From assembly GCA_025823825.1 (NCBI GenBank), contig GCA_025823825.1_4720.1: a DNA stretch of 64,000 nt; one strand, written 5' to 3'. Under the pieces are notes generated by a model. The model saw only the letters and a program-made list of their open reading frames with translations, was not told where the DNA came from and made no database searches. This document shows, piece after piece, positions 1 through 50,063 of this stretch. The position numbers and the translations under genes were made by a program. The DNA comes from a phage. Every line of letters begins with the position of its first letter. Within the stretch, counting starts at the first letter, position 1.

Positions 1-3000
1 TTACTTGTAGGCACCGCAATGGGCTTTGATGAGGAAAAGCACCGCTTGCATCGGTTTATTGAACTGTTGCCATAACGTCAATGCCGGATGGAACAGCCAA
101 TCTTCCAGGCCGAGAACAATACCGTAGTTAACGACATTATTAACATCGTTCTCAACGTTGAGTTCGCTGTCCAGGAATTTATCGATTGAACGCAGGGTCT
201 GCATGGCGTTGTCAGCAATAAGCCAAGCTTCATGCGCTTCACGAGCCGCACGCAGCACTGCCTCCAGTTCGCTGATAGTAGCTACCGGTAATTCCTCGCT
301 GGTGAGGTCGTCAGAAACCGTAAACTGGCGATTGATACCGGTGTAGATCCACTGCATCAGTTTCGCTGCTTCCTCGTTCGGGTTGTTACGCGTTGTCGCA
401 TAAGTCGCGCTCACCTTCACGATGTGTGTTTCACCAAGATACGCTTTGGAACCAATGCCTTTACGATCGCTGTCTTTCCACGGTTGTACGGTAGCGACCA
501 TGAGCTTATCCCATTTCTGAATAGGAATACGCTTCAGACCAACAACCGATCCGGCGGATGTTTCGGACTGGTTGCTCTTCCGCACGTCGCTGAGTTCACG
601 ATCGATAGCAACGATTAATTCACGCGTCATGTTACCAAGCATTTTGATTTCACCCAACGCAGCGATGAGCTTCTTCACATCGGTAACAGGTTCACCATCG
701 ATGGTAAGATGACGGATGAAACGTTTCAGAATAATCCGTTCTGCTGCTGGGTTACCGCGACGCGCTTTAGCCAATGCTTGCTGCGTTTCGGCGAACAGCT
801 TATCCCATGGAGCCGTAGCGGCGGTATAGTAACGGTGGTTGGTTTCAATCCAGTTACCGATACGGTTGACCGCGCTCTTAACGGTATCCATGAATCCTTC
901 CATCGCAATTTCGGTAGCTTCGACGTTACCCTGGAAGTTATCAGGACCGATCTCACGTGCCGCTACCAGAATACCTTCCACCGCGCTCACCGCATGACGA
1001 CCGATAGCCAGATTTCGCTGTGCTTCTTCAGCACGCTCAACGAATTCCACTACCGCAGGATCGTCGACGATTTCCGCCTCGGCAACAACACGAGTACCTG
1101 CATCGCCTTCCAGTGTTTCGATGGTGACAACCGGATCGTTTTCACCAGCAACATCCTGATACTCTTCCTGTTTGAGATCGCCATCATCGGCCGCTGCAAC
1201 AGCGGTGAGTATACGAACGGTAACATCGCCGAGTTCTTTTGCAGCGAATCCGTAAACAGTGCATGCGGTCGTTGCAAAGTTCATCAGAGTACGTGTGCGC
1301 TGCGTGACGTAGCGTGCGCCTGATTCGTTTTCCACTTTGTCTAGATCGCGGAGTAACTGCTCGGCCGTCTCCTGAAGTTGAGTAGCTGCTTTCAGGAGGT
1401 CTTCGTCAAACAGTTTCGTTGACGCATCGATCAGCATTTCAACGCTAACGTTGGACGGTACAGCATCATCCTGCTGTTTCATGGCGCTAAGTTCGTCACG
1501 GAACTCACGAATGCCGTTTAACGCATCGTCGATGGAATATCCGAACGCTTTCACGCCTGCCATTCCAAGAGCGGCTTTCATTTCACCTGGATGCTGAACT
1601 TGCTCGCCTTCCTTGCTGTTCTTTAACTCATCGAAATATTTCTTCGACGCGTCCGCAATACGTTTACTGTCTTTAACCGCATTTACGATCTTATCGACAG
1701 ATTTCGAGTCGTTTGCGAGCAGGGTATCCAGTTTATTCCACTCAACGTCAACCTTCTTGGTGTCGCTCGGCGGAGGAAGCAGTTTCATCACTGGTGCTGT
1801 GCGTTGTTCTTTGGTCAGCTTGTTGGCCTTCTCTTCGATTTTTTTCTTATTAACACCAAAGAGATTTTTCAAACGCGCCACGAGGGCTTTTAAGAACTTC
1901 GCGACCGCTTCGTAAACCGACTTCAGAATCTGTTTAAAGCGACCCGGCTGCTTTTCCCCGTCTTCCAGATTGAGATCGCTGTTCAGTGCGACATCAAGCT
2001 GTTTGTACGATTCCATGATGTATTCGTCTTTGATTTCAGGACGAATCTCGAAGCTTTCCATCGGACCTTCAGCCGGACGGAATTCCATTTTCAGTTCGCC
2101 TTGCAGGGTAGGGTCGACAATGGCGATCGCTTCACCCTGACCATCAGCGTTAAAGCGTTCAGCGTAACGAGTACGGCGAACAATAACACTCTTATCCCCA
2201 TCAAGACGACGTACTACCATGGTGCCAGGAATGTACGGTTGTTCTGTTTCAATGACGGTTACATCTGTTTCACCCTCACCGAGAATAACAGATGCACGCT
2301 GTTCAACAACAGGAACATCTAATACACCACGGGCTTCCAGCTCTTGATGAATTTCGAACGACTCTTGTTTCAGATCTTCATCTTCTTCGTTTTCGTCGCC
2401 TTCATCATCGTCACCTTTGGTGTTTTCATCACCCTTGGTGGTTGTGTCGTCGGTGGCACCAGCGTCAGCGTCGGTGTTAGCAGGTTCTTCGGACGCAGGT
2501 TCGGTGGTGTTGTCCTCCGTGGACGACCCGTCAATGTTATCGACATCAACATCACCTTGCAGTTCTGTTTCCTGAGCAACTGCTTCGGCTTTCTGCTCGC
2601 CGGTATTACCATCATTAGCGTCGACAACAGGTTGTTCGTCAGCGACGGTATCTTCAACCTTTTCTACTTTCTCTACGACATGTTTAATCACGGTGACTTT
2701 GATGGGTTCTTCCGTTGTTTTGGTTTCTGGCGTCACCTCGGCTGCCGCAGCAGCTGTTTCAGCAACAGGTTCTGCTTTTTCCGGTTCGACGACATTACCT
2801 TTAACGCCTTCGGTGGTTTCTGCAGGTTGCGCCGTCTGTTCGATTTGTGCCGGATTGGTCGGATCGATGGCGTTAGCCGCATCCTGAATCTTGTTCTTCA
2901 GGTTGTCACGGTCAGCGTTAACGGTCGGGTCATTGGTTACTTTCGGTGCCGGGGTTTCGGTCGGCGCGTTTGCTGGATATGGGTTCTTCGGCTCTTCGCC

Positions 3001-3378
3001 AGGTGCGGTTGGTACCGCGATCAGAACGAACGGTTGAACGTCGTTACCGTCTTCCATGGTTACGCCGCCGTTACTTGGCGTGAAACGAATTCGCAAACTA
3101 CCATCAATAGGACGGGTCACAATAACAGCGCGTACGACATCTTCACCGTTCTCATCCGTGCTACGAATCACACGAACGGCGTCATCAACAGTAGCCCCTT
3201 CCTCGAGCGTATCTGATTCGATCGTCGCTTCGATGCTGTCTGGCCGTGCCGCTGTAGGTAATGCGATCACCTGCTCTTCTTTATCAGTAGAAAGCGTCGC
3301 TTTGACTTCGATCGGTGTATCGCCGCTTTCCAGGTTAAGATGCGACTTACGCATCAGATCAGCTAACGATTTTTTCAT
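1..3378 (-). CDS. large hypothetical protein (1125 aa) with strongly acidic low-complexity central region; probable virion/morphogenesis protein by context
   Basis: Complete ORF, ATG at 3378 preceded by AAGAGGA, TAA at 1-3; D/E-rich stretch (DDDEGDENEEDEDL); no recognisable catalytic motif. Confidence 0.75.
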   Translation of the reverse strand: MKKSLADLMRKSHLNLESGDTPIEVKATLSTDKEEQVIALPTAARPDSIEATIESDTLEEGATVDDAVRVIRSTDENGEDVVRAVIVTRPIDGSLRIRFTPSNGGVTMEDGNDVQPFVLIAVPTAPGEEPKNPYPANAPTETPAPKVTNDPTVNADRDNLKNKIQDAANAIDPTNPAQIEQTAQPAETTEGVKGNVVEPEKAEPVAETAAAAAEVTPETKTTEEPIKVTVIKHVVEKVEKVEDTVADEQPVVDANDGNTGEQKAEAVAQETELQGDVDVDNIDGSSTEDNTTEPASEEPANTDADAGATDDTTTKGDENTKGDDDEGDENEEDEDLKQESFEIHQELEARGVLDVPVVEQRASVILGEGETDVTVIETEQPYIPGTMVVRRLDGDKSVIVRRTRYAERFNADGQGEAIAIVDPTLQGELKMEFRPAEGPMESFEIRPEIKDEYIMESYKQLDVALNSDLNLEDGEKQPGRFKQILKSVYEAVAKFLKALVARLKNLFGVNKKKIEEKANKLTKEQRTAPVMKLLPPPSDTKKVDVEWNKLDTLLANDSKSVDKIVNAVKDSKRIADASKKYFDELKNSKEGEQVQHPGEMKAALGMAGVKAFGYSIDDALNGIREFRDELSAMKQQDDAVPSNVSVEMLIDASTKLFDEDLLKAATQLQETAEQLLRDLDKVENESGARYVTQRTRTLMNFATTACTVYGFAAKELGDVTVRILTAVAAADDGDLKQEEYQDVAGENDPVVTIETLEGDAGTRVVAEAEIVDDPAVVEFVERAEEAQRNLAIGRHAVSAVEGILVAAREIGPDNFQGNVEATEIAMEGFMDTVKSAVNRIGNWIETNHRYYTAATAPWDKLFAETQQALAKARRGNPAAERIILKRFIRHLTIDGEPVTDVKKLIAALGEIKMLGNMTRELIVAIDRELSDVRKSNQSETSAGSVVGLKRIPIQKWDKLMVATVQPWKDSDRKGIGSKAYLGETHIVKVSATYATTRNNPNEEAAKLMQWIYTGINRQFTVSDDLTSEELPVATISELEAVLRAAREAHEAWLIADNAMQTLRSIDKFLDSELNVENDVNNVVNYGIVLGLEDWLFHPALTLWQQFNKPMQAVLFLIKAHCGAYK

Positions 3379-38917: not shown

Positions 38918-41530
38918 TTAAGCGTCTGGTGTAAAATCAAAAGGAATGTCCGTACGAATGATATCATAACGTTTTCCTAGGAAATAAAACTCTTCGGGAA
39001 CCTGGCCGGGAATAATGCTATCGCCGATGAACTGCGGATACGCCCAGATGTACTGAGTGAGTCCTTCGAACTTATCCAGGTTATTTGCGTGGTTACCCAT
39101 GATACGTTTCCAGAGTTCGCGTTTATACGGTGTTTTAACATCGAATCCATAAAGCGGTGCAAGATCTTCACCAGGAACAAATCCCAGGTAATAATGGATC
39201 TGACTAACCGGGAAACCAAGCGTATCTCGCGGAATGGTGATCGCTTGCTCAGCCTTGGTGACATGCGTTTCAATAATCCAGTCGTAGCACTCCGAATAGA
39301 ACCGATCGAATTTCTCTGGGTTATACCACGCTTTGGGAAGATTCAGTTTCTCCGTGAACGCGTTCGACATGATCGTCGGCAAGAACGGAAGAACGCCGGT
39401 TTTGATCTGCGTGTATTTCGATTTTACCCGGTTAACCAAATTCCAGCAACTGTATCCTAATTGGTCGTTACAAAACTCAACGTAGAGATCGTAGTCACCA
39501 CCGGATAACGGGTTGTTAATATCACCGATGTCTGCGGCGTATTTGTTGGGATATCGGTTATTGAAAGCCAGTTTGGTTTGGTAATCGTAGATACACGGTT
39601 TGTTGTTCGCTGTATTGATCCACCACCAGGGTTCACCTATTTGCACACAAATGTCCTGGACATGGGGGTAGATGATATCAGCAAACGCGGTTAACACGTC
39701 CCCTAACCACGCCATCGCCTGTTGGTTACATGGAGACAGCAACCAGGACGGTGGTGTATATCCGGTTGCGGCGATGTTTCCTTCCCAATCCTGCTGCGCC
39801 CACTCGAACGGGCATGCTGTACTCATCAATTCGTAACTTAAACTGATGGTGACAGAGAAATGGTGTTTTGCAGCATATGCGGCGAAAGCTTCATGCCACG
39901 CGATACAGGGTGGATTTAATACATCCGTGGTGTTCACCAGTAACTTACCCGCACTTGGCGTCCAGACAGTATCGTAGAAATGCGACATTCCAACATAATG
40001 CACTAATTCATCTTGATACCCCGCATAAACCAGGTTTTCAAATACGCGCTCCGGCGTGATGTTGTAATGGTCATCGTAAGCGGTTATCGCACGAAGTTCG
40101 TGTGGTGTACAATGATGGCGATTAACCGTCATTTCTTGATACACCCCATCGATAGGAAGAATCTCGAGGGTTAAACCGAGGTCGATTGGCGTTTCCAGAT
40201 AGGTCGTTTCAGTCGCATCTTCCTTATAATGTCGAGAACTCATGCTGAACATCAACGACGTTACCGATTCGAGTTCGATAGGCTCGTCAGCATAGAACCC
40301 CGCCATTGCGTCATTGAAATCGATCGTTACGATTGCGCTTCTACCGTCTTCAGAGACATCGGTGGCGTATCGGGTTAATGAGATATACTGACGGCTATCG
40401 TCTTTGTGTACGATGGTTAGAACCGGCGGGTTTTCGGTATCTGCAAAGTTACGCTGATCGCCAGTAAACGTGATCTTCGCTTTAAAGATCAAACCGAATA
40501 ACGACGTCATGGGATCATACGCAATACAACCGTGATCCAGCGTATCCGTTGTCCGCCATTCTATCCCGACCAACCCGTTAGCGGTATGGCATCGCATATA
40601 CGCATTAAGGACCATGTCTTCACTGACAACCGCGAAGTTCTCTGTTGACTGACCGTTGATAATCCAATACATCGGTTGCCAGAGGTTACGCGTACCTTTT
40701 GCGTAGCGGTAGGTTGGTGCGCCTTTAGGGTTGCCATTATTGAGATGGAATACGGCAGTACCTTGATAATGGTCGTTCGTATTAATCGGAACACTGTAAG
40801 CATCACCGAGATCCGTACGTTCGACCTTCGTGACTGTTGCGTTTTCAAATAACCCACGTAGCGCCGGTAAACCGATATCTTCAGGCGCGTTTTCTCGACG
40901 AATCGCATCCGCGATGCGGTGGGCTAAGGCAGGGTAAATGACCTCACCCTGCTGTAGGTTTGCAAGACCTACAAAGCGATCGGGGTCGATGCTAGCAATC
41001 AATAACTCGACATCACCCTTCGTTCTATCGTCGTTAAGATATTTCAGTCCGGTAAGGTCAAGATGCTGAATAAGCGACAACAGGTTGTATTTACGGTTTT
41101 CAACAGTTAGTACAAGATCGCCTGCCCAAACCAAACTTCCCTCATCCGCTGTTACTTTAACGGATTGTCGGCCTGTGGTAGACGTTGTTGTCGTTTTATT
41201 TAATTGTCCTTGTAGGAAGTCGGTTGCGAGGTCAAAGGCAATGCCGTAACGGTCAGCGACCGCTTGCATGATTTCACGTAACTGGGTATCTTCTTCAATG
41301 ATAATCTTGACAGGTATTCCCAAGAACGCTTTAGCGAGGTCTCGTTTAACCAACGAGACGAATACGGATTTGTAGTATCGACTTCCATCTTTCCCTTTAA
41401 AAAGAATGGAGGTTGTTTCGGGTGCCGATAGAACACGTGCAAATTCAACATCGTCGAAAGTAAGAGAAAGTCCGTTTTTCTCGTTGGTTAATCTTAGTAT
41501 TTCATTTTGCGCGGTTTCATGTAACTTCAT
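38918..41530 (-). CDS. putative receptor-binding protein/tailspike (870 aa) with shared N-terminal anchor domain
   Basis: N-terminal 110 aa (RDLAKAFLGIPVKII...ADRYGIAFDL) conserved with N-termini of 47425-47952 and 48108-49862 genes; divergent C-terminal region. Confidence 0.7.
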   Translation of the reverse strand: MKLHETAQNEILRLTNEKNGLSLTFDDVEFARVLSAPETTSILFKGKDGSRYYKSVFVSLVKRDLAKAFLGIPVKIIIEEDTQLREIMQAVADRYGIAFDLATDFLQGQLNKTTTTSTTGRQSVKVTADEGSLVWAGDLVLTVENRKYNLLSLIQHLDLTGLKYLNDDRTKGDVELLIASIDPDRFVGLANLQQGEVIYPALAHRIADAIRRENAPEDIGLPALRGLFENATVTKVERTDLGDAYSVPINTNDHYQGTAVFHLNNGNPKGAPTYRYAKGTRNLWQPMYWIINGQSTENFAVVSEDMVLNAYMRCHTANGLVGIEWRTTDTLDHGCIAYDPMTSLFGLIFKAKITFTGDQRNFADTENPPVLTIVHKDDSRQYISLTRYATDVSEDGRSAIVTIDFNDAMAGFYADEPIELESVTSLMFSMSSRHYKEDATETTYLETPIDLGLTLEILPIDGVYQEMTVNRHHCTPHELRAITAYDDHYNITPERVFENLVYAGYQDELVHYVGMSHFYDTVWTPSAGKLLVNTTDVLNPPCIAWHEAFAAYAAKHHFSVTISLSYELMSTACPFEWAQQDWEGNIAATGYTPPSWLLSPCNQQAMAWLGDVLTAFADIIYPHVQDICVQIGEPWWWINTANNKPCIYDYQTKLAFNNRYPNKYAADIGDINNPLSGGDYDLYVEFCNDQLGYSCWNLVNRVKSKYTQIKTGVLPFLPTIMSNAFTEKLNLPKAWYNPEKFDRFYSECYDWIIETHVTKAEQAITIPRDTLGFPVSQIHYYLGFVPGEDLAPLYGFDVKTPYKRELWKRIMGNHANNLDKFEGLTQYIWAYPQFIGDSIIPGQVPEEFYFLGKRYDIIRTDIPFDFTPDA

Positions 41531-41552: not shown

Positions 41553-42194
41553 TTAGATGTACTGCTTACCGCCCACGAAGGAAGTTAACCAGTTCCCGCT
41601 GACGAGTTGTGATACCCAACCTGGAACGGCTCTACCATTCTGGCTCATGATGTTACCACACCAACCAGGGAATCCGGGACGGATGTAATAGAAAGTTAAA
41701 TTGTAGAGATGGCAATTCCATACCGCAACGTTATGTTTACCAGAAACCGCTTTAAAGATAAACGCGACAGGTAACGGAGACGATAACAATTCGGTCACAG
41801 GGACGGCTGACCAGTTCGCATTCGCGTTCCATGGTTGCCAGGTATGGCTACGCGAGTCACCGTTAACGTTACCGTTGCTACCGCGTCCGCCCGCGTTCCA
41901 CCAAAGCGATGGACTCATGTTCTTAAGTGAGGTAAATTGCTGTGGTGGAATATTCGGAATGATAACAGGGTTGGTACCTTGTCCGTGTTTCTTTTCTTTT
42001 GCGTTCACATAGCCGTTTATCGATTCCAGGTATTTGGTACCAGGATAATTGTTCTGGACTTGTGTCGCAATATCACGAACATCGAACGTCCAGCAGATCA
42101 TGGTGTTGTAGTAAGCATCGGTGTTGTCGTACCATGCGTTACCATCTTGTAAACGTGCGCCACTATTCGGTGTTTTATCTGTGTTTATAGCCAT
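41553..42194 (-). CDS. hypothetical protein (213 aa), paralog of 42306-43022
   Basis: C-terminal IRPGFPGWCGNIMSQNGRAVPGWVSQLVSGNWLTSFVGGKQY nearly identical to neighbour. Confidence 0.7.
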   Translation of the reverse strand: MAINTDKTPNSGARLQDGNAWYDNTDAYYNTMICWTFDVRDIATQVQNNYPGTKYLESINGYVNAKEKKHGQGTNPVIIPNIPPQQFTSLKNMSPSLWWNAGGRGSNGNVNGDSRSHTWQPWNANANWSAVPVTELLSSPLPVAFIFKAVSGKHNVAVWNCHLYNLTFYYIRPGFPGWCGNIMSQNGRAVPGWVSQLVSGNWLTSFVGGKQYI

Positions 42195-42305
42195 AGTGTT
42201 GTCCTATACTGCGATGATTGAGATATCGGATGCCGGATGTGTGTTGCCATCAGGTGGTACGTACAGAAACACCCACAGATAAAACAGTAGCTTCTCTAAC
42301 TTCAA

Positions 42306-43022
42306 TTAAATTGAAGTTAGATATTGTTTACCTCCAACAAACGACGTTAACCAATTACCTGAAACAAGTTGCGATGCCCAGCCAGGCACTGCCCTACCGT
42401 TCTGGCTCATCACGTTACCTGCCCATCCCGGAAAACCCGGTCGGAAAATATATACTTGAATATGTGTTAAAGCGTTATCATTACCACTGCCAACAGCAAC
42501 GTTACGACTCCCAGATGACGGGAAATATTCTTTTAAGAACAGAGGATCGGTTGCTAATAAAGATGCGGGCCAAGGGTTCGCGGATGCATCAACATCGAAT
42601 TCGGTCCATCGCCATTTACGTCCCGTGTCGAACCATGTCGATGTACCACCACCCCTCACGGCAAGATTGCGCGCATCACGGACATTATAAATTGATTCGA
42701 TGTTACGCCATCCACCTTTTGCAGCGTTTGCTGCATAGCAAACCGCATTACCACCATTCTTCTTCTCGTAAACGGTTCGTTTGATATGAACACGGTCGAT
42801 GAACGCTTCACCGTATTTGTTGACGAGCGTTTGTGCGATATCACGAAGATCGTGCATGTGAAAAGCGATGTCTTCGTTATGGAACCATGTTGTCTGGTTC
42901 CAGACGGTACCGTTTGGTTCGGCACACATCGATCGGATATTGTTGCGTTGATTAATCGCGATAAAACCCATTGTATACCTCGTTCCTATTCTCAAAAAGG
43001 AAATTTCATACGATGACGCCAT
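42306..43022 (-). CDS. hypothetical protein (238 aa from internal ATG), paralog of 41553-42194
   Basis: Internal ATG (MASSYEISF); the upstream residues of the track ORF are a translated hairpin element whose arm GGAGGAGC serves as SD. Confidence 0.7.
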   Translation of the reverse strand: MASSYEISFLRIGTRYTMGFIAINQRNNIRSMCAEPNGTVWNQTTWFHNEDIAFHMHDLRDIAQTLVNKYGEAFIDRVHIKRTVYEKKNGGNAVCYAANAAKGGWRNIESIYNVRDARNLAVRGGGTSTWFDTGRKWRWTEFDVDASANPWPASLLATDPLFLKEYFPSSGSRNVAVGSGNDNALTHIQVYIFRPGFPGWAGNVMSQNGRAVPGWASQLVSGNWLTSFVGGKQYLTSI

Positions 43023-43026
43023 AGCA

Positions 43027-43056
43027 GCTCCTCCTTCCCTTACGGGTTGGAGGAGC
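43027..43056. repeat. GC-rich hairpin element whose arm provides the SD of 42306-43022
   Basis: Minus-strand reading GCTCCTCC-AACCCGTAAGGGAA-GGAGGAGC-TGCT-ATG. Confidence 0.6.
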
Positions 43057-43064
43057 ATACTTAA

Positions 43065-43571
43065 TTACTCGCTGATAACCTCAACGGAATTGGGATCAGC
43101 GATCATCGCACGGTCAGTAGAACAATTGAAGAAGACCATGCCGACACCATCGCCGTTCGAGTTCAGGGTTGAACTTACGTAAGACAGGGTTGGTTTATTC
43201 ATGCGGTAGAAGCGTTCGCTGGTAGCGGTATTGAACCCCAGATCAACGTAGTCTTTCACCGTGGTATACAACTGTGTGGATTCGAAAACGGTTACCGGAG
43301 AGTCGACGGTAAACTGACTACCTTCATCCACAACCAGAACTTTATCGTTCCAGATTTCAGTGGTTGAAAACTTCGGTTTCCAATGTTCGAATTCCTGGGT
43401 TGCTCCCCAGCAGGAATACACAGCGAGATTGCTGTTCTTCTCAACCGGTTTCAATCCCACCAGTTGTGTCAGGTCTTTATCCAGGTTCGGTAAGCCTTCC
43501 AGCGTAGCGCACCCACCCAGAGAAAGTACCATCAACATACCAAGAATAATCGCGCAGAGTTTCTTCATCAT
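43065..43571 (-). CDS. putative lipoprotein (168 aa)
   Basis: Signal peptide MMKKLCAIILGMLMVLSLGGC with lipobox-like LGGC. Confidence 0.7.
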   Translation of the reverse strand: MMKKLCAIILGMLMVLSLGGCATLEGLPNLDKDLTQLVGLKPVEKNSNLAVYSCWGATQEFEHWKPKFSTTEIWNDKVLVVDEGSQFTVDSPVTVFESTQLYTTVKDYVDLGFNTATSERFYRMNKPTLSYVSSTLNSNGDGVGMVFFNCSTDRAMIADPNSVEVISE

Positions 43572-43619: not shown

Positions 43620-44072
43620 TTACTTTTTGAGCGCTTTAAGTTCTTCTTCCAACGCTTCCACTTTTGCCGTAAGCTTCTGTACTTGTTTGATTAATGGAAC
43701 CACCAAACGTTCGTACATAACACCTTCAGCGACGAGTCCGTTAGAAGAAACGATAGCGGGGTCATCTTCTTCGGTTGCATCACGCCAGTGCACGTACTGC
43801 GGTGCGATCTCACCAACCTCTTCAGCAATCAACCCATACCAACCCCAATCCTTGTTGTCTGCTTCACATGTGGAACGATACCAAACAGGACGCATCTCCA
43901 ATACTTTATCCGCTTGTTCATCCGTGATATTCTCGATATCTTTCTTATAGCGACGCGACGACGTTGAACGAAACACATTGTTGATCCCAGAAACAGGACT
44001 GATATACATGTTAGCCCCGCTGGTTGTAGTGCTAATGTCCCATACCGCAAATCCGCCGTTACTCCCATTTTT
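43620..44072 (-). CDS. S74-type intramolecular chaperone-like domain, open frame out of phase (+1) with upstream tail fiber gene; probable frameshift-fused fiber C-terminus or homopolymer artefact
   Basis: SSRRYKKDIENI...WYGLIAEEV...PQYV...YERLVVPLIKQVQKL...LEEELKALKK matches the auto-processing chaperone pattern; frame open from 44072, first ATG only at 44009; A7 run at junction. Confidence 0.55.
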   Translation of the reverse strand, partial: KNGSNGGFAVWDISTTTSGANMYISPVSGINNVFRSTSSRRYKKDIENITDEQADKVLEMRPVWYRSTCEADNKDWGWYGLIAEEVGEIAPQYVHWRDATEEDDPAIVSSNGLVAEGVMYERLVVPLIKQVQKLTAKVEALEEELKALKK

Positions 44073-47000
44073 TTACGATCAATGTGTTGGCAATAATGTC
44101 CAGGTTATTGTCGTAACCGGTTAATTGTCTTTCCGTTACATAACTGGATAGATTGACCGAGTAGTTCTTACTGTTATAACAACGACGCCATCCTGGGCTG
44201 TTGGTACTGCCATTATAGTTGTCGTAGCTATAAATGAACTCGGAGTTGGTTTTCGCACCACTGACGGAAGACGTGGTTGCGGTCGTAACACGGATGGTAT
44301 AGTTTGTCATCCCGAAGCTAACGACCTCGATAACAGCACCAGCCAGAGGGATAATACCGCACTTGGTTTCACTGTCTGGGATGTATGCGCTGTCGGCAGC
44401 TGCGAAGGAGCAACGTGCGACCCAGGCGCGGGTATTGAATGCACCTTGGTTTTGCAACAACGTGATAAACGATGAGGTCGTAATCGAGCTGTTATTATCA
44501 CCGGTGATCAACCAGCCGGTCGGGCATGCGGTTGCGCCAACGTTTTTCGCTGTTAACGTGATGTTCTGCGATCCGTCGAAGGCTACGCCACTGATAGTGC
44601 GCGCAGTCTGCAGTTTCGTCGCCGTTGCTGCGTTCCCTGATGTGTTCTGGTTCCCTGCGGCGTTAACACCCGGCAGATTGATATTCGCACTACCGTCGAA
44701 AGACACCCCACCAATGGTGCGGGCGGTTTTCAGTTTTGTCGCCGTGGCGGCATTACCGGTCGTGTCTTGGTTACCGGTGGTGTTTACCCCAGGTAGGTTG
44801 ATATTGGCCGTTCCGTTAAATGAAACACCACCAATCGTCCGTGCCGTTTGCAACTTCGTTGCGGATGCCGCATTCCCCGTGGTGTTTTGGTTACCTGTTG
44901 TATTCACACCTGGGATACTATCCTTAGATGTGTAGATCTGTGCCCATTCCGACCAGTTCGCATCTGATGCATCACGACGCGAACGTAGGTAAGCTGGAGC
45001 GTGTGCGCCTGAAGTACCTGACCATCCAATAAGGATCTCACCTTCACCTACTGCGGTTGCTCCTTTAAGATGAACAACGTTACCGTAGGCTGTAGGGTAT
45101 CCGTTATTGTACGCTTCATACATCTGGATGCCCGTATTGCTGCCCTGGGTCGCATTAGCTAAAGCGGTGACTCGTCCCATGGAAGCGAGCACGTTAATGC
45201 TAAAGCTAATATCAGTTGTACCATCAAAGGCGACCCCATTAATCTTCCGTGCTGTTTGGAGTTTCGTGGCAGTAGCCGCATTACCAGAGGTACTCTGATT
45301 ACCTGCTTTGTTCACGCCTGGTAAATCAATGTTGGCGGTTCCATCAAAGGACACACCCCCTATGGTTCTCGCCGTCTGAAGTTTTGTTGCTGAACCGGCG
45401 TTTCCGGAAGTGCTTTGATTACCCGCCGCGTTAACACCCGGTAGGTTAATGCTAGCAGAACCATCAAAAGAAACACCACCGATTGTGACAGCCGTTTTCA
45501 ATTTCGTGGCTGTCGCAGCGTTACCCGTTGTATTCTGATTGCCAGCTGCATTGACGCCAGGTAATGCGATATCAGCTGTGCCATCGAACGCGACACCGCC
45601 TATTTTACGGGCGGTTTGTAGCTTGGTTGCTGTAGCGGCATTACCGCTGGTATTTTGCGTACCGGCTTTATTTACACCGGGAAGATCGATGTTAGCAGAA
45701 CCGTCGAAGCTGACGCCACCTATTGTTCTTGCGGTAGCGAGTTTAGTTGCTGTGGTTGCAGCATTACCAGCCTTTAACCATTCGCCCCATGGGCCATCCA
45801 CGCCGTTCCATGAAGCTGTTAAACTACGTACGTAAATATTTCCTGTACGTACGGTGTAACGCTGTGTTCCACCGAATTGCCCAGCTGGGAGCACTTCGAT
45901 GTAACCTACTGCGTTTGCTTCAGGGAAATTGTGGGCAGCATCAGCATTCGTTGACGTTTGTTTGGACCAAATACCCACAGACGCTTCAACCGGACCGTAG
46001 GTATTTAGATTCGCATCGGTGGGAAGCTGTCCTCGGAAACGTCGGAATAATGAAGCTGTTAACCCCAACGTTGTTTGCATCCCTTCAATGCTTGACTGCG
46101 ATAAAAGCGCCCGAGCTGTCGACGTGATAGCCGCTAAAGCAACCTTATCCGTACCGGTAAAATACGGGAATTTGTTTGCTGAAGTTGCTAAACCTGAAAG
46201 GGCGGTCAGTAATGCGTTAAGGGGTTGTTTCCCAGCCAGCGCGTTAGTTACTGTTGTTGCGAAATTAGGGTCGTTGCCTAAAGCTTGAGCCAGCTCATTA
46301 AGCGTATTTAGCGCTTCTGGCGACGAGTCGATCAGTGATGCGATAGCACGCATCACAAATTCCGTGTTGGCGATCTGTTGACTGCTATCGTTATCTGCAG
46401 CCGTAGGTGCTGCTGGGATACCGGTGAACACAGGGTTATTAAGATCTGCCTTGAGAGCGATGAGACGTCTAAGCGCTTCGACATCGACTTTCAGGTTTTC
46501 CCATCCGACGAGATAACCATCACCGGTTGTATGATAACGGTTGTACCAAAAATCACCATTGACACCGAAATAGAATATTCCTTTCTCTTCGTATTGTGGG
46601 CCGGAACTGTTCCGTGATGAGCTAATGTATTTTATTTCGATAAGGCCGTCGAATACCACTCCTGGGATGATTTTATTATTTCCAGCTGGCTGTGATACTT
46701 GGTACATCCCCGGGGTTGCGGCTTTAACCCACGTTAAGAATTCTGTTACTCCGGCGCTACCACTGAAATTCTTAACGTCGGTAAGTATCGCCCCATAACC
46801 GAACATACCGGGTAGAGCAACTCGTCCGCTGGTACGGTCACGAATATTTGATGCGACGACAGGCAGCTGTTTACGAACATTGTTAACCGCCTTAGGTGTG
46901 GCCGATTTTGTCTCGTCATCGCTATCGATGGCGTTGCTCAGGATGGTCAGTCCTCGAGTATTTGTGGTCGCATCAGGAAGAAACGCGTTATCCAACACCT

Positions 47001-47418
47001 TAAGTTGTACAGCGCTCGTGTTACTAACAACGAGATACATCTGACAGTTAAGAACGCTGGATGCACCTTCAGTAGGCACCGGCTTATATCTTTCCGGTGC
47101 GCTGCAAACAGCGATCAGAACACCCTGATCGTCATACAGACCGATTTCACGTACCCAGAATCCACCTTGGTTTACAGGAATAATACCCTCAACAATAATC
47201 CTGGTTGTGTCATCCGTATCGACACGGATATTAGCAACTTCCCCACGATAAACTTCGTGTACGAGCGCTGTTTGACCAACAGCCGGTGTCGGTATCGACC
47301 CGTTACCATCGCCAACAGCAAAATGTGTGATTTTTAGTTTCTCGCCACCAGGAAGTAGTGCGGCGGCGATACGTTCAGCGCCTTTATCGGTAATGACCGT
47401 TTTATATGTTGTACTCAT
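44059..47418 (-). CDS. tail fiber protein (1119 aa) with P2 gpH-like N-terminal domain and tandem 33-aa fiber repeats
   Basis: N-terminus TVITDKGAERIAAAL...ITHFAVGDGNG...GQTALVHEVYRG...GGFWVREIGLYDDQGVLIAV resembles the P2 gpH / lambda Stf fiber N-terminus (from memory); 8-9 repeats of TARTIGGVSFDGSANIxLPGVNxAGNQxTSGNAATATKLQ. Confidence 0.85.
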   Translation of the reverse strand: MSTTYKTVITDKGAERIAAALLPGGEKLKITHFAVGDGNGSIPTPAVGQTALVHEVYRGEVANIRVDTDDTTRIIVEGIIPVNQGGFWVREIGLYDDQGVLIAVCSAPERYKPVPTEGASSVLNCQMYLVVSNTSAVQLKVLDNAFLPDATTNTRGLTILSNAIDSDDETKSATPKAVNNVRKQLPVVASNIRDRTSGRVALPGMFGYGAILTDVKNFSGSAGVTEFLTWVKAATPGMYQVSQPAGNNKIIPGVVFDGLIEIKYISSSRNSSGPQYEEKGIFYFGVNGDFWYNRYHTTGDGYLVGWENLKVDVEALRRLIALKADLNNPVFTGIPAAPTAADNDSSQQIANTEFVMRAIASLIDSSPEALNTLNELAQALGNDPNFATTVTNALAGKQPLNALLTALSGLATSANKFPYFTGTDKVALAAITSTARALLSQSSIEGMQTTLGLTASLFRRFRGQLPTDANLNTYGPVEASVGIWSKQTSTNADAAHNFPEANAVGYIEVLPAGQFGGTQRYTVRTGNIYVRSLTASWNGVDGPWGEWLKAGNAATTATKLATARTIGGVSFDGSANIDLPGVNKAGTQNTSGNAATATKLQTARKIGGVAFDGTADIALPGVNAAGNQNTTGNAATATKLKTAVTIGGVSFDGSASINLPGVNAAGNQSTSGNAGSATKLQTARTIGGVSFDGTANIDLPGVNKAGNQSTSGNAATATKLQTARKINGVAFDGTTDISFSINVLASMGRVTALANATQGSNTGIQMYEAYNNGYPTAYGNVVHLKGATAVGEGEILIGWSGTSGAHAPAYLRSRRDASDANWSEWAQIYTSKDSIPGVNTTGNQNTTGNAASATKLQTARTIGGVSFNGTANINLPGVNTTGNQDTTGNAATATKLKTARTIGGVSFDGSANINLPGVNAAGNQNTSGNAATATKLQTARTISGVAFDGSQNITLTAKNVGATACPTGWLITGDNNSSITTSSFITLLQNQGAFNTRAWVARCSFAAADSAYIPDSETKCGIIPLAGAVIEVVSFGMTNYTIRVTTATTSSVSGAKTNSEFIYSYDNYNGSTNSPGWRRCYNSKNYSVNLSSYVTERQLTGYDNNLDIIANTLIVKKWE
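44540..45760 (-). repeat. in-frame tandem repeats of about 99 bp (33 aa) inside the tail fiber gene, two blocks
   Basis: Repeated peptide unit read in translation; coordinates back-calculated from protein positions, approximate. Confidence 0.7.
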
Positions 47419-47424
47419 GGCGTT

Positions 47425-47952
47425 TTATCCCGGGTAAATAGTGATGGTGTCACCAACGATAGTTGTAGCACCGGCGTAAAGATACGCTGGTGATGCCTCA
47501 CGTTGGTTTGTCACGATAAGATCCAGTCTCCCACGCCAAACCACGGAGGTATTCGCGATGGGAATCGAGATCTTCTTGGAAGTATCGTCACGAAAATTAA
47601 TGGCGGTAGCAAGGGTAACTGAATCAAAATCAACGTCGGGTTCAAAGTTGAATCCGTATTGATCTGAAATAGCTTGAATAACCGCTCTTATGGTTGTTGT
47701 TTCAACCGACTCCAAAACGATTTTTATCGGTATTCCTAGAAATGCTTTCGCGATATCACGTCGTGTGTAAGTGATAAAACTTTCACCACACCACCTTGTT
47801 CCTTCATTTGCTGTGACGATCACTTTTGCCCTGTTAGCACCAGAACTCCCATCCAGGGTTAAAGTGAGATCGGAGTTGCTGAATACACTACCGTTACGTT
47901 GGTTTATCAACGTAATAAGTTCGTCTTTCCATGGTGGGTAAAGTGAACGCAT
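47425..47952 (-). CDS. short protein (175 aa) made mostly of the shared RBP N-terminal anchor domain
   Basis: Internal ATG (MRSLYPPWKDELITLINQRNG) preceded by GGAGGAGGG; aligns with N-termini of 38918 and 48108 genes (RRDIAKAFLGIPIKIV...DQYGFNFE). Confidence 0.65.
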   Translation of the reverse strand: MRSLYPPWKDELITLINQRNGSVFSNSDLTLTLDGSSGANRAKVIVTANEGTRWCGESFITYTRRDIAKAFLGIPIKIVLESVETTTIRAVIQAISDQYGFNFEPDVDFDSVTLATAINFRDDTSKKISIPIANTSVVWRGRLDLIVTNQREASPAYLYAGATTIVGDTITIYPG

Positions 47953-47975
47953 ATGCGCACCCTCCTCCAATAATC

Positions 47976-48107: not shown

Positions 48108-49862
48108 TTATGCTGCTACATACCCAGGCCAACGTTCTCTTGGCCAGTTTGTTGCGCCCTGTCCAACGTTGTCCTTACCAGAAGTTACATTACTTACATC
48201 CCAACCACTAAGATCCTGGTTAAATGCGGTGTTGTTACGCATCATGAGGTCGATATTACGTAATGATTGGGTATTCCAGCCGGAAATGTCTTGGTTGAAT
48301 GCCGTGTTGTAAGCAAACATGTTAACAACGTTTTGTAATTTTGAAGTGTTCCAGCCGCTAATATCGCCATTGAACTGCATGTTCGAGAACATACTGCTAG
48401 CATCGATAAGACTATCTGTTTTCCAGTTAACCAGCTTGTTCTCATCAAGTGCGTTGCAACTACTGAACATGTAACTCATGTTGTTAACTTTGGATACATC
48501 CCATTTATCTAACCCGTTACCAACGAACTCGTAACAAGCTTGGAACATCCAGCTCATGTCGGTAACCTGGCACACATTCCATTTGCTAAAGTCGAGGTTG
48601 AGTTTTGCGCATCCGGAGAAAGTTTTATACATACTGGTGATACGACTAACATCCCATTCTTGAATGTTAGGATCATTAAGTATAGATAAGAATTGGAACA
48701 ATCCGTCTAACGACGTCCATTTCTCTGGAATACGGTTTGGTACTGTACGGAGCGATGAAAGGTTATTGGTTGACGGAGAGCGGAACATACCGTTATCCCA
48801 ATTTACGATTTCCGTAATGTTGTACCCACGGATCGTTTGGCGTCCATTACCATTATACACAGACCCTGTTGCAGTTATTGTATATTCGTTTGTATCAGCA
48901 TACGTATATTCAGCCTGTGTAGGCCACTCACCTATTACATCCCTATTCCCATCACCCCAGTCAATGGAAATATCTATCCAACCATCAAGATCTAGGGTAA
49001 CGGTCCCGCCATTGGTCTTCAGGATGTATTTACCTGCATTGTCGGTATAATAACAAACAATCATCGCACCGTACAGGTTACCAATTTGCCAATCATCCTT
49101 TTGAGTTACCGCGATTTGTGCTGTACCACGCTGTAAGAAAAGTACCGTACGGTTCTCGTCAGTCTGTAGTGCGGTTAGTGCTTGAGTCTTATCATCGTCG
49201 GTAATTTCACCGGCTTCCATTAAAGCACTTAACATTCTTTCGAAGTACTCGATAGGCAACTGAGGTCCTACCGACATATCAACTGATGGAACAGTGAGAT
49301 CATCCAATGCTGCTGCCGTTGCGAGGACTAATGATCCCTTGGCGGTGTCTGTTTCTTGGAGGTAACGCAGTCCCGTAATCTGGTACGCTTGAATGATTGT
49401 AATCAGATCCAGTGTATCGTTAATGACCTGTACTTGTAAATGTCCAGACCAAACATAGCTGCTTTCAGCAATCGGTAATTCGACCGACTGAATACCCGAC
49501 GTTTCAAAACTGATCTTCTTATTAAGATCGGCTTCCAGGAAATCAACAGCTAGGTCGAAATTTATACCGTACTTCTCAGCGATGGAATCTACAATGTTCC
49601 TGAAAGCAACATCGGTACTTACGATGAAACGTAACGGGATCCCGGTGAACGCGTTGGCAATATCTCGACGAACATACGTGAGCGACTGCTCGAAGAAATA
49701 AGGACTGTTATCTCCAGGTTTGATGGTTACCTGGCATACTTCAGGATGTTCAGCTGGAATGAAAGATTCGAATTTAACGTCGGTTTCCTTCAACGATAGC
49801 ATGTTCTTCCGGTTTACCAACGCCAGAAGATCAGCTTTCCACCCAGGATAAACTGTAGACAT
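48108..49862 (-). CDS. putative receptor-binding protein (585 aa): shared N-terminal anchor domain plus C-terminal DUF285/BspA-type repeats
   Basis: Internal ATG (MSTVYPGWKADLLALVNRKN) with GGAG RBS; C-terminal repeats ...MFxxxxxFNQDISGWNTxxxxNxxxMF... typical of the Mycoplasma DUF285 / BspA-like family. Confidence 0.7.
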   Translation of the reverse strand: MSTVYPGWKADLLALVNRKNMLSLKETDVKFESFIPAEHPEVCQVTIKPGDNSPYFFEQSLTYVRRDIANAFTGIPLRFIVSTDVAFRNIVDSIAEKYGINFDLAVDFLEADLNKKISFETSGIQSVELPIAESSYVWSGHLQVQVINDTLDLITIIQAYQITGLRYLQETDTAKGSLVLATAAALDDLTVPSVDMSVGPQLPIEYFERMLSALMEAGEITDDDKTQALTALQTDENRTVLFLQRGTAQIAVTQKDDWQIGNLYGAMIVCYYTDNAGKYILKTNGGTVTLDLDGWIDISIDWGDGNRDVIGEWPTQAEYTYADTNEYTITATGSVYNGNGRQTIRGYNITEIVNWDNGMFRSPSTNNLSSLRTVPNRIPEKWTSLDGLFQFLSILNDPNIQEWDVSRITSMYKTFSGCAKLNLDFSKWNVCQVTDMSWMFQACYEFVGNGLDKWDVSKVNNMSYMFSSCNALDENKLVNWKTDSLIDASSMFSNMQFNGDISGWNTSKLQNVVNMFAYNTAFNQDISGWNTQSLRNIDLMMRNNTAFNQDLSGWDVSNVTSGKDNVGQGATNWPRERWPGYVAA

Positions 49863-50063
49863 AAGCACTCCAATCATGGGGGCGAACGCCCCCCATCAGT
49901 TAAATGATCGTTTACGTCGCGTAAGGGTAATATAATTGCTGTGAGCCATATCAGAAGTTCACAACATTCTGAATCATAAGGTTACGTCGTTGGAAACAAA
50001 CCGATACAGATTCTTCATAGAACATTGAGATGATGGAAACCTAATTCGTACCATGAAAGCCGC

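Follow-up and report, generated by a model that had tools for sequence, protein, structure and literature searches.

The window, a 64,000-nucleotide stretch of phage DNA (contig GCA_025823825.1_4720.1), carries two neighboring minus-strand genes, A and B, which are true tandem paralogs of ancient duplication. Their proteins have diverged over most of their length and share a 41-residue Trp/Gly-rich motif that is kept by strong purifying selection at the protein level. The region matches Escherichia phage Goslar at about 95 to 97% identity; Goslar is a jumbo phage of the nucleus-forming chimallivirus type, and its genome is 237 kb. A corresponds to Goslar gp087 (Goslar_00087, QBO63880 / YP_009820772), which is annotated as a hypothetical protein; the two have 98% amino acid identity in the N-terminal domain (N-domain), and in Goslar, too, the gene sits between gp088 and gp086. 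Our favored, though tentative, explanation is that A and B are minor glycan-binding accessory proteins associated with the fibers or the peripheral baseplate, each combining a swappable N-domain with a constant interaction motif. A first-pass annotation of the window had noticed the pair and proposed fiber-associated functions (tip adhesins, assembly factors, or carbohydrate-binding proteins). Its observation is confirmed, and its interpretation is partly supported.

A and B are ancient paralogs with a motif under purifying selection

BLASTP aligned A with B at an E value of 3e-35, with 35% identity across 230 columns. This significant pairwise similarity bears out the tandem paralogy that had been proposed from reading the sequence. 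Identity is distributed unevenly: the N-terminal 158 aligned codons are 27% identical, whereas the final 41 codons are 90% identical, in agreement with the N-terminal divergence and the shared C-terminus described earlier. The consensus of the shared motif is RPGFPGW(C/A)GN(I/V)MSQNGRAVPGW(V/A)SQLVSGNWLTSFVGGKQY, as previously quoted. Tryptophan richness, which had been ascribed to the middle regions, holds for the whole proteins (11 of 213 residues, or 5.2%, in A; 10 of 221, or 4.5%, in B).

The 41-residue motif is composed of two repeats of ~15 residues with the pattern (F/V)PGWxxxxxSxN, GFPGWAGNVMSQNGR and AVPGWASQLVSGNW (P of about 2e-4 by shuffling). In an alignment of 13 family sequences, a core of FPG...PG...G..L is invariant and G, S-Q, and W positions are near-invariant; this core is contained in both A and B. 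Two family members, P0009 and P0015, lack the motif tryptophans (PGS/PGK and PGN/PGA).

At the DNA level, the motifs of A and B are only 72% identical and share no unbroken stretch longer than 11 nucleotides (nt). The same codon is used at 8 of the 33 identical degenerate residues, where independent choice would give 11.6 ± 2.6. Synonymous sites in the motif are saturated between A and B, and the proportion of nonsynonymous differences (pN) is 0.08. This combination of synonymous saturation, low pN, and codon choice resembling independence indicates an old duplication followed by purifying selection on the protein. The same DNA identity, codon usage, and run length exclude the possibility that the similar C-termini stem from recent gene conversion or reflect a recombination scar. 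Selection for extra synonymous divergence, as a means of avoiding repeat-mediated deletion, was not supported (P = 0.12).

The N-domain and the gene slot are variable

Comparison of orthologs gave different histories for the two parts of each protein. Window A and A of the related locus L004 are 71% identical in nucleotide sequence over the N-domain and 98% identical over the motif, whereas window A and Goslar A are 97% identical over the N-domain and 86% over the motif. Window B and L004 B share 95% of nucleotides in the N-domain and 89% in the motif; at the amino acid level, the N-domain of B is 98% identical to that of the L004 gene and 95% identical to that of cluster P0001. Because the N-domain and motif histories differ between orthologs, the border between them is a recombination joint, at which N-domains have been exchanged on a constant motif.

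Gene order at the locus varies as well. The window and L004 share the order lipoprotein gene, B, A, gp86. In L002, the lipoprotein gene is followed by a P0003-type allele and then by an A copy (2441-3082) that looks like a decaying pseudogene, with a GTG start, a TGG-to-TGA change at codon 98, and a Gly-to-Arg replacement in the invariant SGNW. Since this A copy is pseudogene-like while a P0003-type allele occupies the B slot, the comparison suggests that the A and B slots are functionally redundant. Goslar differs in having one copy only, gp087, and no counterpart of B; there and in eight metagenomic loci (L014 to L021), the lipoprotein gene is separated from A by a 177-nt spacer. The Goslar gp088-gp087 spacer (L001, 9196-9372) is the stump left by a ~670-bp deletion: the leader of a P0003-type gene and its first ~12 codons remain, and the junction lies 62 nt upstream of A. 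A deletion with such a 5' stump is also the state of the eight metagenomic loci. Because the spacer keeps this stump of a P0003-type paralog, the two-gene state is ancestral to the Goslar state.

In L013, the order is lipoprotein gene, P0002 (B-type, 70% identical), gp85; A, gp86, and the long fiber are absent at the locus, which rules out strict coupling of the family gene to gp86 or to the long fiber. A tie between the B-slot allele and the type of fiber end (S74 versus Tfa) was suggested by four genomes and is not established, given that L018 and L019 combine yet another type of fiber end with a deleted slot. At least one intact family copy is kept in every genome compared. An ortholog of B was sought in 50,697 phage records and none was found, the best matches being less than 60% identical.

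The gp087 family is narrow and restricted to jumbo phages

We define the Goslar gp087 family as proteins with the N-terminal sandwich (described below) and the PGW double-repeat motif. Relatives are scarce: a word-indexed search of 5.8e9 proteins returned 6 and a profile search returned 8. When 1.84e9 cluster representatives were searched exhaustively with a HMMER profile, only 11 matched, each across profile positions ~25 to 215, so that the motif was never seen apart from the N-domain among them. The A-type and B-type clusters matched the family profile at 5e-102 and 6e-95. Both A and B match the hidden Markov model (HMM) over its full length, N-domain and motif, and contain the invariant motif core.

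The named phages that carry the family are Goslar, Serratia phage PCH45, and Salmonella phage SPLA10, all of chimallivirus type. The family is very narrow, restricted to jumbo phages, and uncharacterized; PhiKZ appears not to have it. The homologs in PCH45 (QFP93093, 370 amino acids [aa]) and SPLA10 (WNT47125, 218 aa), both annotated as hypothetical, have the same N-domain and motif and are 28% and 43% identical to B, respectively, in the aligned stretches. PCH45-type members differ by the addition of a ~140-residue beta domain after the motif. The extra beta-rich domain that members of 316 to 368 aa carry beyond the motif indicates that the motif is not obligatorily C-terminal. The text of the transposon sequencing (Tn-seq) paper makes no mention of the essentiality of the PCH45 homolog.

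CPT_Moabite_147 (175 aa, hypothetical; L012, Serratia phage Moabite, 4824-5351) is ~30% identical to the extra domain of PCH45-type members. Its gene lies between fiber/gp131-like genes and a phiKZ gp164-like baseplate gene, in a slot syntenic with that of the family gene. By sequence and position, this domain, which stands alone in Moabite-like phages, looks as though it was either split off or fused on at a slot that is itself conserved.

In PCH45, SPLA10, L005, L010, and L023/24, the family gene directly follows a ~575-aa fiber gene with a Peptidase_S74 chaperone, and a phrog_3216 "baseplate assembly protein" gene comes next on the other strand. In L003, the family gene adjoins endolysin and DUF7941 genes. 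Overall, it lies no more than one gene from a fiber or DUF7941 gene in six of eight lineages. This synteny is suggestive but not universal.

The N-domain is modeled as a beta-sandwich

AlphaFold2 modeling of B (8 sequences) gave a predicted template modeling score (pTM) of 0.70. Residues 20 to 195 of the 238-aa construct were modeled as a beta-sandwich with a predicted local distance difference test score (pLDDT) of 80 to 90. The motif fell to a pLDDT of about 40, and the last strand (KQYLT) returned to 78. The long homolog P0016 was modeled similarly, with a confident sandwich, a low-confidence motif, and a second beta domain at a pLDDT of 60 to 70. When superposed, the B model and the BFVD model of Goslar gp087 give TM scores of 0.72/0.79, indicating that A and B share a fold. 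The first-pass annotation had spoken of a C-terminal domain; the conserved stretch exists, but it is a short motif, it is internal in longer homologs, and the AlphaFold2 models show no domain there that folds on its own.

The best PDB matches to the modeled N-domain are carbohydrate-binding modules (CBMs), including 8wab and 7vbo, and the model has the beta-jelly-roll or sandwich fold of such modules. These matches lend some support to the carbohydrate-binding function proposed earlier, but membership in a CBM sequence family was not found. Searches of A, B, and the family profile against Pfam, PHROGs, NCBIfam, and PDB sequences returned no match. The Caudo_TAP and Tfa profiles (PF02413 and PF28596) did not match A or B, whereas the same library matched true Tfa genes in relatives. 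DUF7941 (PF25613) likewise did not match A or B, whereas it matched the neighbors at 38918-41530 and 47425-47970. For Gp38_N, A and B had no match in Pfam or PHROGs, and their modeled fold is a jelly roll.

gp087 is detected in virion preparations

Goslar gp087 was detected by label-free quantitative (LFQ) mass spectrometry of purified virions; 4 peptides covered 28.6% of the protein, and its estimated copy number was about 19 (13 to 30) per virion (Table S4, 10.64898/2026.04.21.720040). The same table gives ~43 copies of fiber gp090, ~52 of Tfa gp089, ~4.5 of gp086, and ~737 of the lipoprotein-like gp088, which is the fourth most abundant unmodeled protein. It also contains evident contaminants, namely, thymidylate synthase (~20 copies), chimallin (~126), and PhuZ (~170). 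The virion proteomics that had been suggested as a check on the first reading is thus positive for gp087, but at the level of co-purifying thymidylate synthase. This detection is compatible with a minor structural protein and does not prove one.

Apart from Table S4, the Goslar structure preprint neither models nor discusses gp087, and it does not mention the lipoprotein signal of gp088 (10.64898/2026.04.21.720040). In the cryo-electron microscopy structure, the peripheral baseplate and fibers are unmodeled, and the authors could not assign them. The authors propose that the DUF7941 proteins, including gp86, form a cloud of filaments with carbohydrate-binding or -hydrolyzing domains (10.64898/2026.04.21.720040). 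In genome-wide host screens, the receptor of Goslar was assigned to the outer core of lipopolysaccharide (LPS) ("GluII"; galU, hldE, waaF, rfaY) (supplement of 10.64898/2026.04.02.716166). This assignment indicates that Goslar reads glycans.

B most likely starts at position 42971

Three starts were considered for B: 43058 (longest open reading frame [ORF]), 43022 (first-pass annotation), and 42971. Translation most likely begins at the ATG at 42971 (MGFIAINQ...). The start at 43022, which would add 17 residues, was rejected: the corresponding ATG is ATA in the relative L013, and its apparent Shine-Dalgarno sequence, GGAGGAG, belongs to a hairpin (-25.4 kcal/mol), of which it forms the 3' arm. 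In addition, A aligns with B from the second Met of the longer B reading onward.

The leader of B marks the limit of the variable slot on its 5' side. In a six-locus alignment, three elements are kept between the lipoprotein stop codon and the family gene: the hairpin, the box CGTCATCGTATGA, and GAGGTATA(C/A)AATG. The box is invariant and is kept in all Goslar-like loci. It does not recur elsewhere in the window, where a scan gave 21 matches against 24 expected, and this lack of enrichment led us to reject it as a recurrent promoter. Sigma-70-like sites were looked for and none was found. The box may correspond to a phiKZ-type late promoter, with TATG at the start site.

The hairpin at 43027-43056 (z = -6.2) reads GCTCCTCC AACCCGTAAGGGAA GGAGGAGC on the minus strand, and its counterpart in L004 (7140-7170) has the center TTCCCTTACGGGTT. 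The 14-nt center is exactly reverse-complemented in L004, so that the loop is flipped between 8-bp inverted repeats. At this place, L013 carries a hairpin that is unrelated to the others and stronger (-38.4 kcal/mol). At the other end of B, the 12-bp palindrome is AT-rich (-12.9 kcal/mol; z = -4.6), and its loop holds the TAA stop codon of B. In L004 and cluster P0001 (135 member sequences), this stop codon is replaced by AAA, and 34 extra residues (KLKLEKLLFYLWVFLYVPPD...) reach the start of A.

Neighboring genes

A and B lie inside a run of minus-strand genes that spans 38.9 to 48 kb of the window (Table 1). The split between the fiber gene and its S74 part is due to one extra A (44059-44074; A7 run at 44068-44074); L004, which is 93% identical to the window at the nucleotide level around this homopolymer, has A6 and a single 1009-aa ORF. 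The A7 run could be a sequencing error, an inactivating or phase-variable mutation, or a transcriptional slippage site. Further variable host-recognition genes are found upstream of the fiber, namely, the 589-aa ORF, where Goslar has the 1199-aa gp092, and the gene for the 181-aa DUF7941 protein.

The lipoprotein gene lies directly upstream of the family gene in 13 of 13 Goslar-like loci, including L013. The lipoprotein has a classical signal peptide (MMKKLCAIILGMLMVLSLGG followed by C). In L013, the signal peptide is different, the lipobox is kept (LLTG followed by C), and the mature part is near-identical. An exported lipoprotein is an odd component of a virion preparation; it may have come along with debris of membranes, or it may be a receptor blocker like T5 Llp.

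Table 1. Features of the A/B locus and its surroundings in the window
Feature	Position	Strand	Description
Paralog A	41553..42194	minus	213 aa; Goslar gp087 ortholog
Paralog B	42306..42971	minus	221 aa counted from ATG 42971
A motif	41556..41678	minus	aa 173-213, PGFPGWCGNIMSQNGRAVPGWVSQLVSGNWLTSFVGGKQYI
B motif	42309..42440	minus	aa 178-221, PGFPGWAGNVMSQNGRAVPGWASQLVSGNWLTSFVGGKQYLTSI; pLDDT ~40 except last strand
B leader	42972..43064	minus	hairpin, then box CGTCATCGTATGA, then ribosome-binding site GAGGTATACA before ATG 42971
B-A spacer	42195..42305	minus	perfect 12-bp palindrome (42295-42321) overlaps B end
gp086 (gp86) homolog	38918..41530	minus	870 aa, DUF7941 + NCTSP_N + TIM-barrel; starts 22 nt past A stop
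Lipoprotein, Goslar gp088 ortholog	43065..43571	minus	168 aa, lipobox LGGC
Fiber's Peptidase_S74 chaperone part	43620-44009	minus	split from fiber by frameshift
Long tail fiber, Goslar gp090 ortholog	44059-47418	minus	Phage_tail_fib N-terminus
DUF7941 protein, Goslar gp091 ortholog	47425-47970	minus	181 aa
589-aa ORF	48108-49877	minus	same position as 584-aa DUF7941+DUF285 protein of L004 and L014

Interpretation and alternatives

In the explanation that we favor, each protein would consist of a ~175-residue jelly-roll beta-sandwich of CBM type followed by the 41-residue Trp/Gly-rich double repeat, and A and B would be low-copy virion proteins in the unmodeled fiber or peripheral-baseplate region. 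The fast-evolving, recombining N-domain would face the host and bind a surface glycan. The motif would fold only when it meets a partner that stays constant: a virion site to which it docks, or other copies of itself as an oligomer forms. Upstream of A would lie an exchangeable cassette position that holds a B-type allele or a P0003-type allele or is deleted, so that a phage could have a single adhesin specificity or two of them, with the anchor unchanged.

Several results weigh against this explanation. The fold match to CBMs is a generic one; Foldseek found nothing in the PDB at an E value of 1e-3 or less, and picornavirus-type jelly-roll capsid proteins score like CBMs against the model. 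The HMM searches, like the structure search, had been put forward with the first reading, and they found no tie to any CBM, DNRLRE, adhesin, fiber, or chaperone family. The copy number of gp087 is within the range of evident contaminants, and the P1-S-like fiber of Goslar could alone account for the LPS dependence. The polarity of the proteins, with a variable N-terminus and a conserved C-terminus, is opposite to that of most fibers. The motif was never found without the N-domain, which argues against a promiscuous docking module; it could be an integral loop or the binding site itself.

The first-pass annotation had placed the pair between tail fiber genes. The pair does lie in a host-recognition cluster, with the long fiber upstream and the DUF7941/TIM-barrel protein downstream, but the direct upstream neighbor of B is the lipoprotein gene, not a fiber gene. 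Beyond this locus, two distant family members have no adjacent fiber genes: the neighbors of the family gene are nonstructural in L009 and L022, and P0008 and P0015 are located among nonstructural genes.

Among the alternatives, the one that survives best, though we consider it unlikely, is that A and B are assembly factors that chaperone the neighboring fiber or DUF7941 proteins. The motif would grip a conserved feature of the client, substoichiometric carry-over would account for gp087 in virions, and there would be no host binding. This fits the low, noninteger amount of gp087 (about 0.4 per fiber chain) and the gene position: a fiber gene, or the Tfa/S74 chaperone that goes with it, comes directly before, and gp86 follows after 22 nt. 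The Goslar Tfa gp089 is likewise present in virion preparations, and the isolated motif is modeled as disordered. However, similarity to Caudo_TAP, Gp38_N, or S74 was not found, and a rapidly diversifying beta-sandwich is atypical of chaperones. Moreover, phages whose fiber ends are of the Tfa type, the S74 type, or another type all make use of the same A (98% identical), and L013 has a family member with neither a long fiber nor gp86 at the locus.

The motif itself may be the ligand site, a reading to which we assign a distinctly low probability. Here, the aromatic double repeat would bind a host structure that does not vary (inner-core LPS, for example, or the membrane interface), and the sandwich would be a scaffold or a second specificity. 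The composition of the motif (3 Trp, 2 Phe, and Gln/Asn/Ser) is typical of sugar-stacking or interfacial segments, the motif has an internal repeat, and Goslar depends on the LPS core. The return of the last strand of B to the sandwich would allow the motif to be a long loop excursion. Since the motif always occurs with the N-domain, this reading is strengthened and the idea of a shuffled docking module is somewhat weakened. Conversely, the motif resembles a linker between two beta domains in long homologs, its modeled confidence is low, and no match to a known motif was found. The loss of Trp in P0009 and P0015 is unexpected for a stacking platform.

Least probable is a nonvirion role at the envelope together with the adjacent lipoprotein (receptor masking or superinfection exclusion, like that by T5 Llp or phi80 Cor, or protection of progeny from debris), with the family protein as a cytoplasmic or released partner: the constant lipoprotein neighbor, retained in L013 without fiber and gp86, and the T5-like phages, in which exclusion lipoprotein genes adjoin receptor-binding genes, speak for it, but the strong hairpin and conserved leader between the genes suggest separate transcription units, no signal peptide or transmembrane segment was seen in A or B, PCH45- and SPLA10-type members have no lipoprotein neighbor, and gp087 peptides are found in virion preparations.

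Host recognition by chimalliviruses is poorly resolved, and neither the Goslar structure nor that of PhiKZ includes a model of the fibers or the peripheral baseplate. If A and B are adhesins with a docking motif and a variable head, they would be candidate components of the missing baseplate and fiber density. N-domain swaps on the constant motif would then offer a handle for host-range engineering, and the state of the B slot would be a simple typing marker for Goslar-like phages. If they are assembly helpers only, the locus would represent an ordinary duplication of an accessory gene. A broader proposal, which we regard as rather doubtful, is that the gp087 family is an unrecognized system of exchangeable adhesin cassettes in nucleus-forming jumbo phages, in which the PGW repeat would be a universal plug into the unmodeled peripheral baseplate or fiber apparatus and one or two interchangeable CBM-like heads per genome, in the A and B slots, would tune the surface glycans that are read. 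Were this so, Goslar-like phages would change their host range to a large extent through gain, loss, and swapping of the slot.

Comparison with known systems

The modeled N-domain is 7 to 10% identical in sequence to beta-sandwich CBMs (the DNRLRE-type chondroitin-sulfate module 8wab, the alginate module 7vbo, and CBM35/6/36/4/15/22), and nothing in these modules corresponds to the PGW double-repeat motif. In its organization, the family is like the T-even gp38 tip adhesins and the Tfa/U fiber assembly proteins of Mu, P1, and P2, the latter of which remain attached to the fiber; all of these are also small separate proteins encoded directly after the fiber gene. As in gp38 and Tfa, one part is constant and one exchanges rapidly, with cassette-like variation among related phages; this is a likeness of working, not homology. 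Unlike in gp38 and Tfa, the polarity is reversed in the gp087 family, with a variable N-terminus and a constant C-terminus, and unlike gp38, the family has a jelly-roll fold rather than a polyglycine-II sandwich. The combination of a variable head, an ultraconserved short motif, and a cassette-like slot is a variation on the known theme of exchangeable phage host-recognition modules.

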